NCBI GenBank assembly: GCA_000435515.1
Contig: FR884184.1
Coordinates: 18,941-82,940, forward strand
Source: Firmicutes bacterium CAG:582
GTDB taxonomy: Bacteria; Bacillota_I; Bacilli_A; RF39; UBA660
Direction of reading: 5' to 3'
Length of the DNA: 64,000 bases
How positions within the stretch are numbered: position 1 is the first letter of the stretch; every line of letters starts with the position of its first letter. The notes beneath the pieces were generated by a model. It was not told the DNA's origin. It saw only the letters and a program-made list of their open reading frames with translations, and searched no databases. Of this stretch, positions 11,993 to 27,562 are shown one piece after another. The position numbers and the translations under genes are program-made.

Positions 11993-12050
11993 AAAAGGAG
12001 AGTGTAATTATGGCTGGGGGGGGGGGAAAAGGAGAGTGTAATTATGGCTG
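11993..12050 (+). repeat. 24-bp tandem duplication of the rpsB SD and start (aaaaggagagtgtaattatggctg) separated by a G11 homopolymer
   Basis: Copy 1 at 11993..12016, G-run at 12016..12026, copy 2 at 12027..12050. G-runs this long are extremely unusual at about 27% GC. Confidence 0.6.
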
Positions 12051-14323: not shown

Positions 14324-14378
14324 GAGTCGAAAGACTTCTTTTTTTATGTATATTACAATATAAAAGAGGAAGAATTAT
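14324..14378. terminator. convergent terminators: tsf (+) hairpin and 11-bp perfect palindrome agaggaagaat/attcttcctct for the PilB-like gene (-)
   Basis: gagtcgaaagactc-like hairpin with T-run on the plus strand. The perfect palindrome at 14356..14378 overlaps the minus-strand stop and is followed by a U-run on the minus strand. Confidence 0.5.
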
Positions 14379-16864
14379 TCTTCCTCTAAATTAATATCAT
14401 TTAATAATGAATCAATTGTTGCATCATCTATAAGATCATCAAAATAGGCATCTTTTAGAATATCATTGTTGTCTTCTTCTTTTATTATATTATCTTTTTT
14501 ATCTTCTGTATTTATAATATTTAAATCATTGTCGAAGTTTAAATCATCTTCTGATATGTAAATATTTTTATCTTTTTCGTCATTGATTAGTGTTTTAACG
14601 TCTTCCAATTTATCAAAGTCATCGTTATTAGTGTTTAAATCGCTTTCTAAGATGTCTTTTTTATTTACTAGATTATTTATATCAATAATATTTAAATCGT
14701 CTATATCAATGTCTTTTTGTGTTAAAGTAATTTTTTCAGGTTCGTGATTTAATTCAGGTAATTCGATGTCATCAGTTACATCTATATCATCAGATTCCAT
14801 AATATAGTCAGAACTTTCGTTTAGCTCATTAATTATATCTTTTATAAGCTTATTATTATTTTTGTAAAGTAAACTGTCATCTTCAATTAAAGATAGATAA
14901 ATTAGATAGTTGTCAATTTCATTTTGATCTGCTAGTTTTGAAACATCTATTTGTTTTAATAGAACATTTAAGCGATCGTTATATAATTTTTTTGTAATAT
15001 CATATTTTTCATCATCAAGTTTTTCTAATTCTTCATATGTGCTTAATTTTATAATTTTCTCTGGTTCTTCTTTACTAGGAAGAACAATAGGTATACTATT
15101 TGTATCATCTTTTACTATAGGTAAGTTTTTACTTTCTTCAGTCTCTGTATTAGTGATGTTTTCTTCAACTGGAGCATTTTCTATTACTGGTTCTTCTTGT
15201 GTAATTGTTTCTTGTTCAATTGGTGTTTCTTCTTTAACTTCAATTTGCTTATTTTCTTCAACACTTGGTGTAAGTTCTTTACTTAACATATTTAAGCTTT
15301 TTAATACGTCTTCAGTTATATTTATATTGATAGGTTGATTTGAATTTAACATTGTTTGATTGCTTACTATTTGACTCGCATCTATTTGATCATCTAAACC
15401 AAGTTGGGTATCATTTCCTAAATCATCATCTAAATCGATAAGTTTTAGTATTTCATTAAATGAAGTTTTTCCTTCTAATACTTTTTCAAGTCCATCTTGA
15501 AGCATTGTTTCGGTTCCATCTTTTCCATAAACAAGGTTTCTTAAATATGGTTTACTAGCTCCTTTAACAATTGCGTCCTTTATTTCTTGGTTTAGAAGCA
15601 GTACTTCGTGAATTGCAATTCTTCCACGATAGCCATGATTACATTCGCTGCAGCCAACTGGTTCATATATTTCTTTAACGTCAATATTTAATGCACGTTT
15701 AAAGATTTCTTTTTCATAGTCTGTAGCAGGGCGTTTGGTTTTACATTTTTCGCATAATCTTCTTGCTAGCTTTTGAGATACGATTCCTGATAGGGAAGAA
15801 CCTAATAAATATCTTTCTACAGACATATCTGTTAAACGTTCAATTGTATTTAAAGAATTGTTTGTATGTATAGTTGATAGAACAAGATGTCCAGTGATAC
15901 TAGCCCTTACGGCAATTCTTGCTGTTTCGTCATCACGAATTTCTCCAATCATTATAACATCTGGGTCTTGACGAAGTATACTTCTTAAAACGTTTGCAAA
16001 TGTTAATCCAATTTCTGCTTGAGCTTGAACTTGGTTAATTCCAGGAATGCTCATTTCTATTGGATCTTCTACAGTTATAAGGTTTGTACCTTCAACGTTT
16101 AGTTTTTGTAGCATAGAATAAACGGTTGTTGATTTACCTGTTCCTGTTGCACCTGTTACAAGAATTATACCGTTTGGAAGAGCAAGCATCTTTTTTACTT
16201 TTTCAAGGTTTTGTTTGTTGAAATCTAATGCTTCAATTCCGGCAGCACTCATAGAGTAGTCCATGATACGTAAAACGATTTTTTCTCCTAAATTGGTTGG
16301 TAAACTTGATACACGAATATCAATAGTTTTTCCATCTATTTCACTTCTAATAGCTCCATCTTGAGGAACTCTTGATTCTGTAATATTCATTCCAGATATG
16401 ATTTTTATACGAGTTATCATATTCTTTTTTACATATAGGGGAACGATAGAGTAGTCGTTTAAGACTCCATCTACTCTTAATCTAATTTTTATACCACCAT
16501 CAAAAGGATCAAAGTGAATATCACTTGCGCCTTTTGCAATGGCGTCTAGTATTATTGAATTTACTATATCAGTTATCGGAACATTGTTATAATCGAACGT
16601 TACCATACCATCTAGCATTTCTTTGTTGTCCATTTGATGTTCTGATGCGGATATAATATTGCTTTGCTCACCAATGTAGTTTCCGTTTTCATCGATTAAA
16701 GACGGATCAATTGGATTACCAAATTCGTCAACATATTCAGTTACACCTTTATAATTTCCGTTTTCATCTATTAAAGAAGGATCAAGTTCGTTACCAAATT
16801 CATCAACATATTTAGTTACTGAATTATCGTCGACTATTTCGCCTTTTAAATCCTTATTGTTCAT
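14375..16864 (-). CDS. PilB/GspE-family type IV pilus / competence secretion ATPase with unusual N-terminal tandem repeats and long acidic low-complexity C-terminal tail
   Basis: Walker A GATGTGKST, Walker B DPDVIMIGEIRD, tetracysteine CEKCK...GCSECNHGYRGRIAIHEV. Core is about 480 aa. The C-terminal roughly 350 aa is D/E/N/I-rich. Confidence 0.8.
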   Translation of the reverse strand: MNNKDLKGEIVDDNSVTKYVDEFGNELDPSLIDENGNYKGVTEYVDEFGNPIDPSLIDENGNYIGEQSNIISASEHQMDNKEMLDGMVTFDYNNVPITDIVNSIILDAIAKGASDIHFDPFDGGIKIRLRVDGVLNDYSIVPLYVKKNMITRIKIISGMNITESRVPQDGAIRSEIDGKTIDIRVSSLPTNLGEKIVLRIMDYSMSAAGIEALDFNKQNLEKVKKMLALPNGIILVTGATGTGKSTTVYSMLQKLNVEGTNLITVEDPIEMSIPGINQVQAQAEIGLTFANVLRSILRQDPDVIMIGEIRDDETARIAVRASITGHLVLSTIHTNNSLNTIERLTDMSVERYLLGSSLSGIVSQKLARRLCEKCKTKRPATDYEKEIFKRALNIDVKEIYEPVGCSECNHGYRGRIAIHEVLLLNQEIKDAIVKGASKPYLRNLVYGKDGTETMLQDGLEKVLEGKTSFNEILKLIDLDDDLGNDTQLGLDDQIDASQIVSNQTMLNSNQPININITEDVLKSLNMLSKELTPSVEENKQIEVKEETPIEQETITQEEPVIENAPVEENITNTETEESKNLPIVKDDTNSIPIVLPSKEEPEKIIKLSTYEELEKLDDEKYDITKKLYNDRLNVLLKQIDVSKLADQNEIDNYLIYLSLIEDDSLLYKNNNKLIKDIINELNESSDYIMESDDIDVTDDIELPELNHEPEKITLTQKDIDIDDLNIIDINNLVNKKDILESDLNTNNDDFDKLEDVKTLINDEKDKNIYISEDDLNFDNDLNIINTEDKKDNIIKEEDNNDILKDAYFDDLIDDATIDSLLNDINLEEE
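16667..16816 (-). repeat. 2 x 75-bp in-frame tandem repeat encoding the 25-aa units TKYVDEFGNELDPSLIDENGNYKGV and TEYVDEFGNPIDPSLIDENGNYIGE
   Basis: Direct nucleotide repeat of about 85% identity, visible at the 5' end of the PilB-like gene. Confidence 0.6.
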
Positions 16865-21242: not shown

Positions 21243-21851
21243 ATGAAAAATAAGGGATTTACTTTGGTTGAACTACTTGCGGTTATTGTTATAATTGGTC
21301 TTATACTTGCAATAACGGTACCAAATGCTTTTAAGATTAGTAGTAAAGTTAAGACTAAAGCTTATGAAACAAAAATAGAACAAATCGAGTCTGGTGCAGG
21401 TGCAACTTATGGAAACAATAATTTAGGAGTTGTTAGAACGAGTGCTGGTAGATGTGCTTTTAAAGTGGATGCTGATGATAATTTGGTTCAAGCATATTAT
21501 GCAGCGAATGGAGTTATAAATGATGCAGGTTCTTTAGAAAAGTATCCATGTATAAAAATGACTATTCAAGATTTAGTTGAGGCTGGGTCACTAGAATATG
21601 ATAGTAAAAAAATGTGTGACACTTATAATTGTCCAACAGATACTCAAACTAGAGCATATTATGAGAATATTATTTCGAATCCGGTTGATGATTATATAAT
21701 TAACACTTGTAATGTGTACATATATTATAAGAATAATCGTGCATATGCGACTTTTGATAAAGTAACTTGTGATCAAAAAAGAGATACACCAGATAATGGA
21801 CATGAATATAAAAGATTATCTAAAAAGATAACATCTACAACTAAAAAATAG
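21243..21851 (+). CDS. type IV pilin / competence pseudopilin (class III signal peptide)
   Basis: Prepilin motif KGFTLVELLAVIVIIGLILAI. Standalone gene between engB and der. Confidence 0.75.
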   Translation: MKNKGFTLVELLAVIVIIGLILAITVPNAFKISSKVKTKAYETKIEQIESGAGATYGNNNLGVVRTSAGRCAFKVDADDNLVQAYYAANGVINDAGSLEKYPCIKMTIQDLVEAGSLEYDSKKMCDTYNCPTDTQTRAYYENIISNPVDDYIINTCNVYIYYKNNRAYATFDKVTCDQKRDTPDNGHEYKRLSKKITSTTKK

Positions 21852-24612: not shown

Positions 24613-25326
24613 ATGATTGAATCGGTAAATAATGAAAAGATAAAAAGATATTCAAAATTAAACGAAAAAAAATATCGTGATAAAGAAAATATGTTTATTG
24701 TAGAAGGTGAACATCTAGTTGAAGAAGCTTTAGAAAAAGGCATTGTAATTGATATATTTTCTTTAGAAGAAAAAGAAAATTCTACTCGAGTTAGTATTGA
24801 AGTTATGAAAAAGCTTAGCAATCTTTCTAATCCTCCTAAAATACTTGCTGTTGCTAAAAAAATTGAGGAAAGAAAAATTAATGGCAATGTTTTAGTTTTA
24901 GATGATATTCAAGATCCTGGAAATCTTGGAACGATTATAAGAAGTGCAGTTTCTTTTGGAATAGATACAATTGTTGCAAGTAAGAATACGGTTGATGTAT
25001 ATAATTCAAAAGTTATACGTGCAACAGAAGGAATGCTTTTTAAAATCAATTATTTAAAAAGAGATTTGGTTGAATTTATTAATGCGAATAAAGATACTTT
25101 AACATTTATTACAACAGATGTTAGAACTGGAAAAGATATTAAAGATATAGAAATACCAGGTAATTATGCTTTGATTATGGGAAATGAGGGAAATGGAGTA
25201 AGTGACGCTGTAAGTGAACTTGTTCCAAATAAAGTTAATATAAAAATAAGTGAAAAGTGTGAATCGTTAAATGTTTCTATTGCAACTTCAATACTCCTTT
25301 ATGAGCTTTATACAAGATTAGACTAG
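24613..25326 (+). CDS. TrmH/SpoU-family RNA 2'-O-methyltransferase
   Basis: SpoU motifs VLDDIQDPGNLGTIIRSAVSFG and IMGNEGNGVS. N-terminal substrate-binding domain. Confidence 0.8.
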   Translation: MIESVNNEKIKRYSKLNEKKYRDKENMFIVEGEHLVEEALEKGIVIDIFSLEEKENSTRVSIEVMKKLSNLSNPPKILAVAKKIEERKINGNVLVLDDIQDPGNLGTIIRSAVSFGIDTIVASKNTVDVYNSKVIRATEGMLFKINYLKRDLVEFINANKDTLTFITTDVRTGKDIKDIEIPGNYALIMGNEGNGVSDAVSELVPNKVNIKISEKCESLNVSIATSILLYELYTRLD

Positions 25327-25368
25327 GTCTAATTTTTTTTTACAATAAATTATACGATTTTTTTCAAA

Positions 25369-25398
25369 TTGACTTGAAAATCGTGGGGGGGGTATTAT
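25369..25398 (+). promoter_or_regulatory. candidate promoter with G8 homopolymer in the -35/-10 spacer (possible phase-variation switch)
   Basis: TTGACT at 25369..25374. The 18-nt spacer ends in GGGGGGGG (25385..25392). TATTAT at 25393..25398. Gene ATG at 25430. Confidence 0.45.
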
Positions 25399-25429
25399 AA
25401 AATAAAAATAGAAAGATAGATGATGCAAA

Positions 25430-27562
25430 ATGAAGAAAACGACAATACTTATAATAGTAGTTTTATTTATGGTAATAGGATATGCAGCATATAATACAAC
25501 AATAAATATATATGGAAATGGAAAGTTAGCAGAAAACCTAAGTGATTTTAAAGTATATCTATCTAATTTAAAAGTAAACGGAAAAGAAGTAAGTGGAATA
25601 AATAATACAAAAGATGAATTTACAATAAATGAAATAAATGGAGATATAAGTGTAGATATAGTAAATGATTCAACAGAATATGATACAAAAGCTTATTTAG
25701 ATTGTGATGTAGATAACACCTGGGATTTTGATTATACTGGAGGTGAACAAACTTTTACTGCACCAATTACTGGAACATATAAATTAGAGGTTTGGGGAGC
25801 TCAAGGTGGATCGGGTTCTTTTAATAATTATTCAAATGATAAAGCTGGTTATGGCGGATATTCACTTGGATTAATTTCTATCAATTCGTCTTCAAAAATA
25901 TATATAAATGTTGGCGGGGCTGGTGGCGTTGTAAATAGCATAAATGGAAGTGCTGGTGGTTACAATGGTGGTGGAAATGGAGAAGCTACCTGTGAAGGTT
26001 TTAAATACCCTGGAGGAGGAGGCGGCGGAGGTGCAACACATATTTCTGGTACATCAGGAATTCTTCCAACTCTATCTAATAAAATTGATAATATCATGAT
26101 CGTCGCAGGTGGAGGCGGAGGTGCTGGATTATATAATGGTGGTTACAATCAAGGTGGAGGATATGCGGGTTCTGGTGGTGGATTTGTTGGCGGGGACGCA
26201 ACTACTACTAACCTTAGGCCTATCATCGGTGGAACACAAACAACTGGTTATAGTTTTGGTCTAGGAGAAACTTCCACTGCATGTCACTATGCAGTCGATG
26301 GCAACTGGGGTAATGGCGGCGGAGGTGGAGGCTTCTATGGCGGTTTTGCTTCAAGTTATACAACTGGTACTTATACCAATGGCGGTGGTGCCGGAGGTTC
26401 GGGCTATATAGGTAATCCGCTTCTAACAGAGAAAAGTATGTATTGTTACAATTGTACTGAGTCAAATGAAATATCAATCAAAACAGTATCAACCACATGC
26501 GTAAATTCAAATCCAACAGAAAATTGTGCTAAGTTAGGAAATGGATATGCACGTATTACCTTAATATCATCTCCTACAAGTATAACAACAGATAAAGTAA
26601 CTATTTCTGCTCAAGAAAGTACTAGCCAAAATCTAAAAAATGTAACTGGTAAAACATTAACTTGTAAACTAAAGGTTAATAAGATATCAAGAACGGAAAA
26701 GAAAGAATACACAGGACCAACAGAATGGACATTTGATTATACAGGAGGAGAACAAACATTTACTGCACCAATCACAGGAACATATAAGTTAGAGGCTTGG
26801 GGAGCCCAAGGTGGTAGTGGTATAAATACTAATCAAGGAAGTACAAATTATGTTAGAAATGGCGGCTTTGGCGGATATTCTAGTGGAGAAATTAGTATTT
26901 TAAAAAACAGCGTCCTTTATATAAATATTGGTGGTCAAGGAGAAGATGGAACCTCTACTCAAGATATAGGAGTAAAGTTTTCTGGAGGATATAACGGTGG
27001 AGGTAATGGCTTATATTATTCTGGAGGTGGAGGAGCAACTCACATTGCTACTAAATCTGGAATACTATCATCTCTACATAATTCTATTAATTACATTTTG
27101 ATTGTTTCCGGTGGAGGTGGAGGAACGTCTGCTCATTATTTAGGAGGTGGCTACTGCATTGGTGGCTCTGGTGGCGGAATTCAAGGTCAAGCCGGCTATA
27201 ATGGTGATAGCACTACCTATTTAGAAAATGGTAGTTCTCAAACAAATGGATTTTCCTTTGGAAAAGGAGAAGATTCACAAAATCCTTCGAGTGGATGCGC
27301 TACTGCTGGCGGCGGAGGTGGTTTTTATGGCGGGAAGTCTCCAACTAATTTCTCAACTTCGTGGAATTCCTGCTCCGGTGGAGGATCTGGATACATAGGT
27401 AATACTTTATTAAGCAAAAAAGGCATGTATTGTTATAATTGTACTGAATCAAGTGAAATATCAACAAAGACTATTTCAACTACATGTACAAGTGCAACAC
27501 CAACAGTAAACTGTTCAAAACAAGGTAATGGATACGCACGTATTACTTTAATATCGTATTAG
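25430..27562 (+). CDS. secreted glycine-rich-domain protein with internal tandem duplication (two modules of about 300 aa)
   Basis: Signal peptide. Module starts W(D/T)FDYTGGEQTFTAPITGTYKLE(V/A)WGAQGGSG are repeated at about residues 100 and 430. Each module ends MYCYNCTES.EIS.KT.STTC....PT.NC.K.GNGYARITLIS. Reminiscent of the Gly_rich domain family (ALK/LTK-like). Confidence 0.7.
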   Translation: MKKTTILIIVVLFMVIGYAAYNTTINIYGNGKLAENLSDFKVYLSNLKVNGKEVSGINNTKDEFTINEINGDISVDIVNDSTEYDTKAYLDCDVDNTWDFDYTGGEQTFTAPITGTYKLEVWGAQGGSGSFNNYSNDKAGYGGYSLGLISINSSSKIYINVGGAGGVVNSINGSAGGYNGGGNGEATCEGFKYPGGGGGGGATHISGTSGILPTLSNKIDNIMIVAGGGGGAGLYNGGYNQGGGYAGSGGGFVGGDATTTNLRPIIGGTQTTGYSFGLGETSTACHYAVDGNWGNGGGGGGFYGGFASSYTTGTYTNGGGAGGSGYIGNPLLTEKSMYCYNCTESNEISIKTVSTTCVNSNPTENCAKLGNGYARITLISSPTSITTDKVTISAQESTSQNLKNVTGKTLTCKLKVNKISRTEKKEYTGPTEWTFDYTGGEQTFTAPITGTYKLEAWGAQGGSGINTNQGSTNYVRNGGFGGYSSGEISILKNSVLYINIGGQGEDGTSTQDIGVKFSGGYNGGGNGLYYSGGGGATHIATKSGILSSLHNSINYILIVSGGGGGTSAHYLGGGYCIGGSGGGIQGQAGYNGDSTTYLENGSSQTNGFSFGKGEDSQNPSSGCATAGGGGGFYGGKSPTNFSTSWNSCSGGGSGYIGNTLLSKKGMYCYNCTESSEISTKTISTTCTSATPTVNCSKQGNGYARITLISY

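Follow-up and report, generated by a model that had tools for sequence, protein, structure and literature searches.

A G tract in the spacer of a candidate promoter that its length probably tunes, ahead of the gene for a putatively secreted ALK_LTK_GRD protein in Firmicutes bacterium CAG:582

It appears that a run of eight G residues in the genome of Firmicutes bacterium CAG:582 lies in the spacer of a promoter of the housekeeping-sigma type, which drives the gene for a secreted ALK_LTK_GRD protein, and that slippage in this run tunes the promoter—a reading considered here as probable rather than firm. The DNA analysed, called the window throughout, is a stretch of 64,000 nucleotides from contig FR884184.1 of this low-GC, uncultured human gut bacterium, which can be regarded as cell-walled since the window has genes for penicillin-binding proteins; it also has genes for a pilin-like protein and for a type II/IV secretion ATPase. 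The exact matches to rpsB, SpoU and GDPD are listed at NCBI under the name 'Firmicutes bacterium CAG:582'. The elements concerned, each given with its position in the window, its strand and its basis, are the following:

25314..25341, + strand: terminator-like hairpin at the end of the SpoU-family methyltransferase gene that lies upstream (RNA fold, direct read)
25369..25407, + strand: conserved promoter cassette TTGACTTGAAAATC-(G tract)-TATTATAAAATAAAA, the unit repeated before paralogous secreted-protein genes (pattern scans)
25369..25374, + strand: candidate -35 hexamer TTGACT (consensus scan; invariant in nearly all cassette copies)
25375..25392, + strand: 18-nt spacer, TGAAAATCGT followed by G8 (direct read)
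25385..25392, + strand: G8 homopolymer GGGGGGGG, the putative hypermutable element (rarity, orthologous length alleles, sole indel)
25393..25398, + strand: candidate -10 hexamer TATTAT (consensus scan; invariant in cassette copies)
25430..27562, + strand: open reading frame of 710 aa, the gene under candidate control (ORF list, Pfam)

Direct reading of window positions 25369-25398 (TTGACTTGAAAATCGTGGGGGGGGTATTAT) agrees with what a sequence-only reading of this DNA had described, i.e. the hexamers TTGACT and TATTAT separated by 18 nt, the last eight of which are G, the surroundings of the run having the form TGAAAATCGT...TATTATAAAA. The same reading had called the G8 run highly non-random at about 27% GC, and the numbers bear this out: at the GC content of the window (27.7%), the expectation for runs of at least eight G per 64 kb is only 0.02 with independent bases and 0.04 with a first-order Markov model, and the only other run of at least six G or C in the window is G11 at 12016-26. 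The TTGACT-18-TATTAT pair, with its -10 hexamer 32 nt upstream of the start codon of the 710-aa frame, scores 10/12 in the consensus scan, as does an alternative pair that overlaps it 5 nt further on, TTGAAA at 25374-79 and TAAAAT at 25398-403, likewise 18 nt apart. Both good hexamer pairs between the SpoU hairpin and the start codon thus enclose the G8 tract in their spacers, and the argument from spacer length holds for either of them. On the question which of the two is the real promoter bear the loci L086-L088, a copy of the cassette in front of a gene of family B (described below), in which ACGACT replaces TTGACT (1442-1447; 1070-1075 in L088), with TTGAAA kept and with G8, the -10 block and the gene all intact. 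It should be pointed out that in this AT-rich region promoter-like hexamer pairs as such show no enrichment (27 observed vs 21.3 +/- 4.5 in shuffles), so that the promoter reading rests on the conservation of the cassette, not on the match to the consensus. A 20-nt near-palindrome across the -35 hexamer (TTTTCAA-ATTGAC-TTGAAAA, 25361-80) was considered as an operator and rejected, its left arm not being conserved in the paralogous copies; it is probably not an operator, although its right arm belongs to the invariant cassette.

Concerning the gene itself, its 710-aa product begins, as seen by inspection, with an N-terminal KK and a 14-residue hydrophobic segment, and contains two ALK_LTK_GRD domains (PF12810, E = 2e-68, two matched stretches) together with a domain of ~95 residues common to family B. 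No lipobox Cys was found, the N-terminal 90 residues being devoid of Cys, and no record of the exact 710-aa product was found; judged from these features, it looks like a variable surface or secreted protein with an N-terminal signal or anchor. Its orthologues measure 375-1045 aa and carry one to three glycine-rich repeats, and the coding sequences are free of homopolymeric G runs. The body of the gene (window 25561-27562) is mosaic and differs by 31-32% from those of L002, L003 and L006, the flanks beside it being identical or 1-4% divergent and the break falling ~130 nt into the coding sequence; L006, for one, is the same as the window over 3.9 kb upstream and for 130 nt into the coding sequence, and from there on is 31% divergent. 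Moreover, L054 and L006 have different neighbouring genes, and the mosaicism taken together with the differing neighbours suggests recombination among paralogues.

Orthologous loci were gathered as contigs encoding exactly the neighbour proteins of the window—SpoU methylase, YgjP-like, a 250-aa protein, GDPD and RimM—and through an exact-pattern scan of metagenome contigs, and together these gave the orthologous intergenic region of 33 independent human-gut samples. These originate from several studies and from different assemblers (metaSPAdes NODE_, MEGAHIT k119/k141 and other scaffolders), and a G-rich tract stands at the same position in 33/33 of the gut-metagenome assemblies. The alleles at the window's locus, tallied per independent sample with L015 and L034 included, are:

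CGT-G6, spacer 16 nt: 3 samples
CGT-G7, spacer 17 nt: 2 samples
CGT-G8 (window included), spacer 18 nt: 4 samples
CGT-G9, spacer 19 nt: 3 samples
ATC-G8, spacer 16 nt: 1 sample
GAGGAGGGGG, interrupted, spacer 18 nt: 16 samples
GAGGAAGGGG, interrupted, spacer 18 nt: 2 samples
GCGGAGGGG, interrupted, spacer 17 nt: 2 samples
GTGGAGGGG, interrupted, spacer 17 nt: 1 sample

The comparison of tract length across isolates, which had been put forward as a check, thus gave four lengths, G6 to G9, in the 12 samples with uninterrupted alleles, in (near-)identical flanks, and the spacer ranges from 16 to 19 nt across strains, the tract alone setting the difference. Five tract alleles occur among nine samples with 0/1150 differences in the upstream flank; similarly, the 3.4 kb upstream flank of ten strains shows 0-20 substitutions and 0 indels, yet four tract lengths. 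When strains are aligned pairwise to the window over 3.8-6.7 kb, no indel other than the tract appears, despite the presence of 8 A/T runs of at least 7. Within one haplotype the length is called reproducibly, L008 and L070 (0 differences, different studies) both having G6, L043 and L044 both G7, and the window, L006 and L045 all G8. In the 21 samples with alleles interrupted by A, T or C, there is no length variation within any class, and their flanks differ by up to 26/1150 without a change in length; the difference in length variability between interrupted and uninterrupted alleles is supported by a Fisher p of 3.6e-5. What these alignments show, therefore, is a gain and loss of G in the tract far faster than change in the surrounding DNA, and a freezing of tract length where the run is broken by A, T or C. 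Instability confined to the uninterrupted repeat is, as a pattern, the signature of slipped-strand mispairing, and the tract can be considered with high confidence to be a genuinely hypermutable element. Its length changes in the time in which 3.4 kb acquire 0-4 substitutions, and in the consensus assemblies one length is common to identical haplotypes that come from different hosts, which indicates that the slippage rate is not extreme; the tract is hypermutable, yet may change more slowly than classical contingency loci do. With eight G, the run is near the lower limit of length for phase-variable G tracts. Neither MutS nor MutL was found among the ten large ORFs scanned in the window, a result that bears on these ORFs and not on the genome as a whole.

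It should be noted that in most strains with the GAGGAGGGGG allele the start codon, at the site that corresponds to window 25430, is GTG and not ATG (the loci L003, L005, L009, L015, L046, L048, L055, L067 and others), owing to which gene callers choose a downstream ATG. In some of these strains the gene is damaged, i.e. frameshifted in L004, split in L009 and halved in L005.

The 37-39-nt promoter core is not restricted to one locus, being present in at least 4-5 copies per genome in related genomes. A scan of one genome per species for the exact pattern TTGACTTGAAAATC-N(0-16)-TATTATAAAATAAAA found it in only one species representative, the Hadza-gut MAG CAKOPW01 ('uncultured Bacilli bacterium'), with 3 exact copies on three contigs and a fourth, diverged one, TTAACTTGCAAATC-G8. 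The scan of metagenomes for the cassette added 24 more loci, five copies of the cassette being present in sample ERZ1673743. In the window itself no other copies with up to 2 mismatches were detected, the matches being no more than expected by chance. Across 17 distinct genomic contexts the conservation starts at the -35 hexamer and stops at ...AAAATAAAA just past the -10, the flanks outside the cassette being unrelated apart from an A/T-rich stretch before the -35; since these limits match those of a core promoter, they are the best support for the cassette as a self-contained core promoter. Furthermore, nearly all G/C runs of at least 6 in the 357 kb of lineage DNA fetched are inside the cassette. 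Many metagenome contigs (L016, L020, L028, L033, L044, L045 and L073) end within ~10-40 nt of the cassette, which fits a multi-copy repeat, made up of the promoter and the conserved signal-peptide region, that breaks assembly graphs.

Three gene families, all of secreted-type proteins, were found behind the cassette. Family A consists of glycine-rich ALK_LTK_GRD proteins resembling the 710-aa protein of the window, family B of proteins of ~395 aa whose N-terminus is related and which carry DUF6273 as their C-terminal domain, and family C of a 200-aa protein heading an operon with a B-like gene; DUF6273 in family B was the only addition from Pfam, and the scan of all three families against NCBIfam revealed nothing meaningful. 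Family B is hypervariable, with 6680 cluster representatives at E <= 1e-20, most of them on a single contig each. The sequence-only reading had likened the locus to the Mycoplasma vlp genes, and as related genomes have the same tract-bearing core before several paralogous genes for secreted proteins, the comparison fits better than could be seen from the window alone. Genes for a T2SSE ATPase, a pilin-like N_methyl protein and T2SSF are situated near the cassette-driven genes in the window (14375-16864, - strand; 21243-21851, + strand) and in L086 (3381-4179). A link of the cassette-driven secreted-protein families to a pilus or secretion apparatus is possible.

The paralogous copies of the cassette are more uniform than the window's locus. 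In 20/23 reliable instances they have ATC-G8, i.e. a 16-nt spacer, in diverged flanks, and the 4 further paralogous loci from the homologue search, with places having the same neighbours merged, are all G8; the lower length variability of the paralogous copies in comparison with the window's locus has a Fisher p of 0.002. This uniformity may possibly come from selection for an expression state, from gene conversion or from a sequence-specific role of the tract, and it counts against a freely slipping tract unless selection or gene conversion holds G8.

The last of these possibilities leads to the alternative that survives best, namely that the G tract is a fixed part of the promoter of a shared regulon, with G8 kept by selection and the variation at the window's locus being noise under relaxed selection. 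The tract would then serve as a contact for a dedicated regulator or sigma factor, or as a spacer that needs a set sequence or rigidity. Beside the G8 uniformity in diverged flanks, this explanation can draw on the core with its non-hexamer bases TGAAAATC, which are invariant over the three families, something that a plain promoter does not need, as well as on the extra GT that distinguishes the window's locus from the paralogue norm. The many point-mutated tracts at this locus also agree with relaxed selection, and so does the damage to the genes in L004, L009 and L005, to which the halved gene in L038 is to be added. In most strains, however, interrupted tracts and lengths of 8 to 11 go together with full-length, intact genes, so that strict recognition of G8 is not needed at the window's locus, and gene conversion or selection on the expression state explains the uniformity of the paralogues equally well. 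Even a fixed tract would still be mutable within the spacer, and changes in its length would still alter the promoter. On this evidence the explanation by a fixed G8 is regarded as rather unlikely.

According to another alternative, the tract belongs to a 5' untranslated region, transcription coming from read-through of the SpoU gene or from the weak pair TAGACT-16-TACAAT (25319-46), and any action of the tract would be at the RNA level. The pair at 25319-25346 scores 9/12, and the hairpin at the end of the SpoU gene is a weak one: its 10-bp stem (AAGATTAGAC / GTCTAATTTT), with the loop TAG being the stop codon of SpoU and followed by T9 (25333-41), has a predicted energy of -7.5 kcal/mol (z = -1.87; RNA fold), and it is missing from a simple terminator scan because it has only 2 G-C pairs. 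Its structure is nevertheless terminator-like and may isolate the 710-aa gene from read-through. The cassette, moreover, follows upstream sequences of many kinds that bear no relation to one another, among them convergent or unrelated genes and the insertion in L007 described below, its conservation begins exactly at the -35 hexamer, as befits a self-contained promoter and not a longer leader, and a search for structured RNA in the intergenic region gave no Rfam match at E <= 1. A location in the leader of a longer transcript is therefore improbable.

The insertion in L007 (3733-5178, sample ERZ27261058; the same contig as L041/L050/L069/L082) is an IS element, consisting of a 274-aa rve-family transposase and a 120-aa ORF, which sits at the SpoU terminator hairpin, upstream of an intact G8 cassette that it leaves undisturbed. 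A contig of ERZ28655993, probably L074, terminates in a similar end of an IS.

The worry that the run could be a poly-G artefact was justified by the source assembly itself. On either side of the G11 run at 12016-26 stands a copy of AAAAGGAGAGTGTAATTATGGCT, a perfect direct repeat of 23 nt (window 11993-12049) by which the ribosome-binding site of rpsB and its start codon are duplicated, and the whole 34-nt insertion with G11 is absent from 10/10 related contigs; most likely, it is an assembly artefact derived from poly-G read tails in the source data. In addition, the VOFC01 loci L021, L022 and L024, all G6, have coding sequences with frameshifts of the homopolymer type; they are probably error-prone long-read assemblies and, because of these frameshifts, were left out of the counts. 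For the promoter tract, an origin of the run in two-colour Illumina poly-G or of its length variation in homopolymer miscalls, which the G11 insertion and the VOFC01 loci might speak for, is very improbable, given that the tract occupies the exact position in 33 samples that are independent of one another and come from several studies and assemblers—by which an artefactual origin of the tract as such is largely ruled out—that identical haplotypes from different studies have the same length, that the other homopolymers of the flanks are invariant, that a flanking duplication of the kind seen at G11 is lacking, and that the consistency of G8 in ~24 paralogous copies indicates low technical noise.

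The preferred reading is thus that of a tract which modulates the transcription of the 710-aa gene via the length of the spacer, and from the evidence of the alignments and of the cassette this seems likelier to be correct than not, without being certain. Promoters recognised by sigma-70 and sigma-A are sensitive to spacer length. Slipped-strand mispairing during replication would add or remove G residues and so alter how far the -35 hexamer stands from the -10 hexamer in steps of 1 nt over 16-19 nt; transcription would change with the spacer, and the outcome would be a heritable yet reversible volume control, possibly with an 'off' state at 19 nt, of a putative surface or secreted protein with a hypervariable body.

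The proposal of an on/off or volume switch made in the sequence-only reading has to be divided accordingly: the length variation stands, but a clean on/off is disfavoured, since the interrupted 17- and 18-nt alleles retain mostly intact genes. Approximately two thirds of the strains at the locus have such interrupted, length-stable alleles with 17- or 18-nt spacers and mostly intact genes, which means that switching is dispensable, and that the 18-nt state of the window is probably active and not 'off'. Seen together with the paralogues at 16 nt, these locked alleles make volume control more plausible than a clean switch; the 19-nt spacer of G9 is the only state outside the range of the locked or paralogous copies.

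As far as the other loci are concerned, we infer a small multi-locus set of contingency promoters in CAG:582. The wider idea, a lineage-specific multi-locus 'phasome' in which the 37-nt G8 cassette precedes at least 5 dispersed genes for hypervariable secreted proteins and slippage generates combinatorial surface diversity, is offered tentatively, as a possibility somewhat less likely than its opposite. If true, it would mean a Vlp-like strategy outside mycoplasmas and outside pathogens, in a widespread gut commensal, and interruption of the tract would be a natural 'locking' that can be seen in the human population.

To our knowledge, repeat-driven phase variation has been documented almost entirely in pathogens. 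The switches known from gut commensals are mostly invertible promoters in Bacteroidales. The mechanism discussed here, phase or volume variation by a homopolymer in the promoter spacer, is itself already known from pathogens; new for it are an uncultured gut commensal as the host, the families of genes concerned and a cassette that is identical in its multiple copies. In the literature searched, there was no description of the CAG:582 cassette system, nothing relevant on CAG-582 and no report found on bacterial ALK_LTK_GRD proteins. With this locus, an uncultured gut Firmicute provides a concrete case, testable from existing metagenome reads, with the interrupted alleles as built-in natural controls and a small family of identical promoters for comparison. 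For metagenome assemblies in general, it implies that homopolymer length at such sites is a real biological signal, that a cassette of this kind breaks contigs, and that genuine poly-G artefacts coexist with it in the same assembly.

Among the known systems, a homopolymeric G between the -35 and -10 that sets the spacer length, as proposed for the candidate promoter of CAG:582, is found in porA of Neisseria meningitidis, for which, as for opc, the original reports are said to be those of van der Ende in 1995 and Sarkari in 1994. The poly-G of porA determines how long the spacer is and thereby brings transcription to graded levels, from high down to none, opc having a poly-C (PMC7864442). Different from CAG:582 are the Gram-negative pathogenic host, the single loci, the tracts of 9-11 G and the switching shown experimentally. 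In Treponema pallidum, tp0126 has a poly-G between the -35 and -10, with expression best at a 17-nt spacer, and together with the tpr genes (E, G, J, F, I, L) it presents tracts of ~7-11 G in the promoters of paralogous surface-protein genes, the tract length varying within and between isolates (PMC7864442). A poly-G tract in the promoters of several paralogous surface-protein genes is likewise the probable arrangement of the CAG:582 cassette. T. pallidum, however, is a spirochaete pathogen with a GC-rich genome in which G runs are common, its tract-bearing promoters are not one identical cassette, and in tprL the tract overlaps the -10 region instead of setting the spacer; the effects on expression have been measured there, whereas the CAG:582 locus is known from sequence. 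AT-rich genomes are represented by Campylobacter and Helicobacter, where G/C tracts of at least 7-8 are strongly over-represented at surface-structure genes (PMC6321876, PMC8355987). These tracts are mostly in coding sequences and act by frameshift, whereas that of CAG:582 is in the candidate promoter; the G8 at 25385-92 is, in length (>=7-8 G/C), in being uninterrupted and in its non-random occurrence, a homopolymer of the kind that promoter-spacer variation of the porA, tp0126 or vlp type requires.

A counterpart in organisation exists in Mycoplasma hyorhinis, in whose Vlp system, as reportedly described by Yogev in 1991 and by Citti and Wise in 1995, each variable surface-protein gene has its own promoter and 5' region, highly conserved and with a homopolymer in the -35/-10 spacer, and a divergent, repeat-containing body, expression being combinatorial. 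The Vlp system is listed in a review (PMC11868660). Both systems consist of multigene variable proteins, each with a conserved tract-bearing promoter—4 such copies being counted in CAKOPW01 and 5 in ERZ1673743—and the host of Vlp is also a low-GC relative of Bacilli; at the window's locus, furthermore, the tract is polymorphic in length between close strains with constant flanks. The Vlp tract, however, is a poly-A and not a poly-G, its products are lipoproteins with a lipobox, whereas the CAG:582 protein has no lipobox Cys, and the Vlp genes are clustered in one locus, unlike the dispersed copies found here in a cell-walled organism. With its poly-G tract and its non-lipoprotein products, the cassette would thus work like Vlp, without being a member of the Vlp family.
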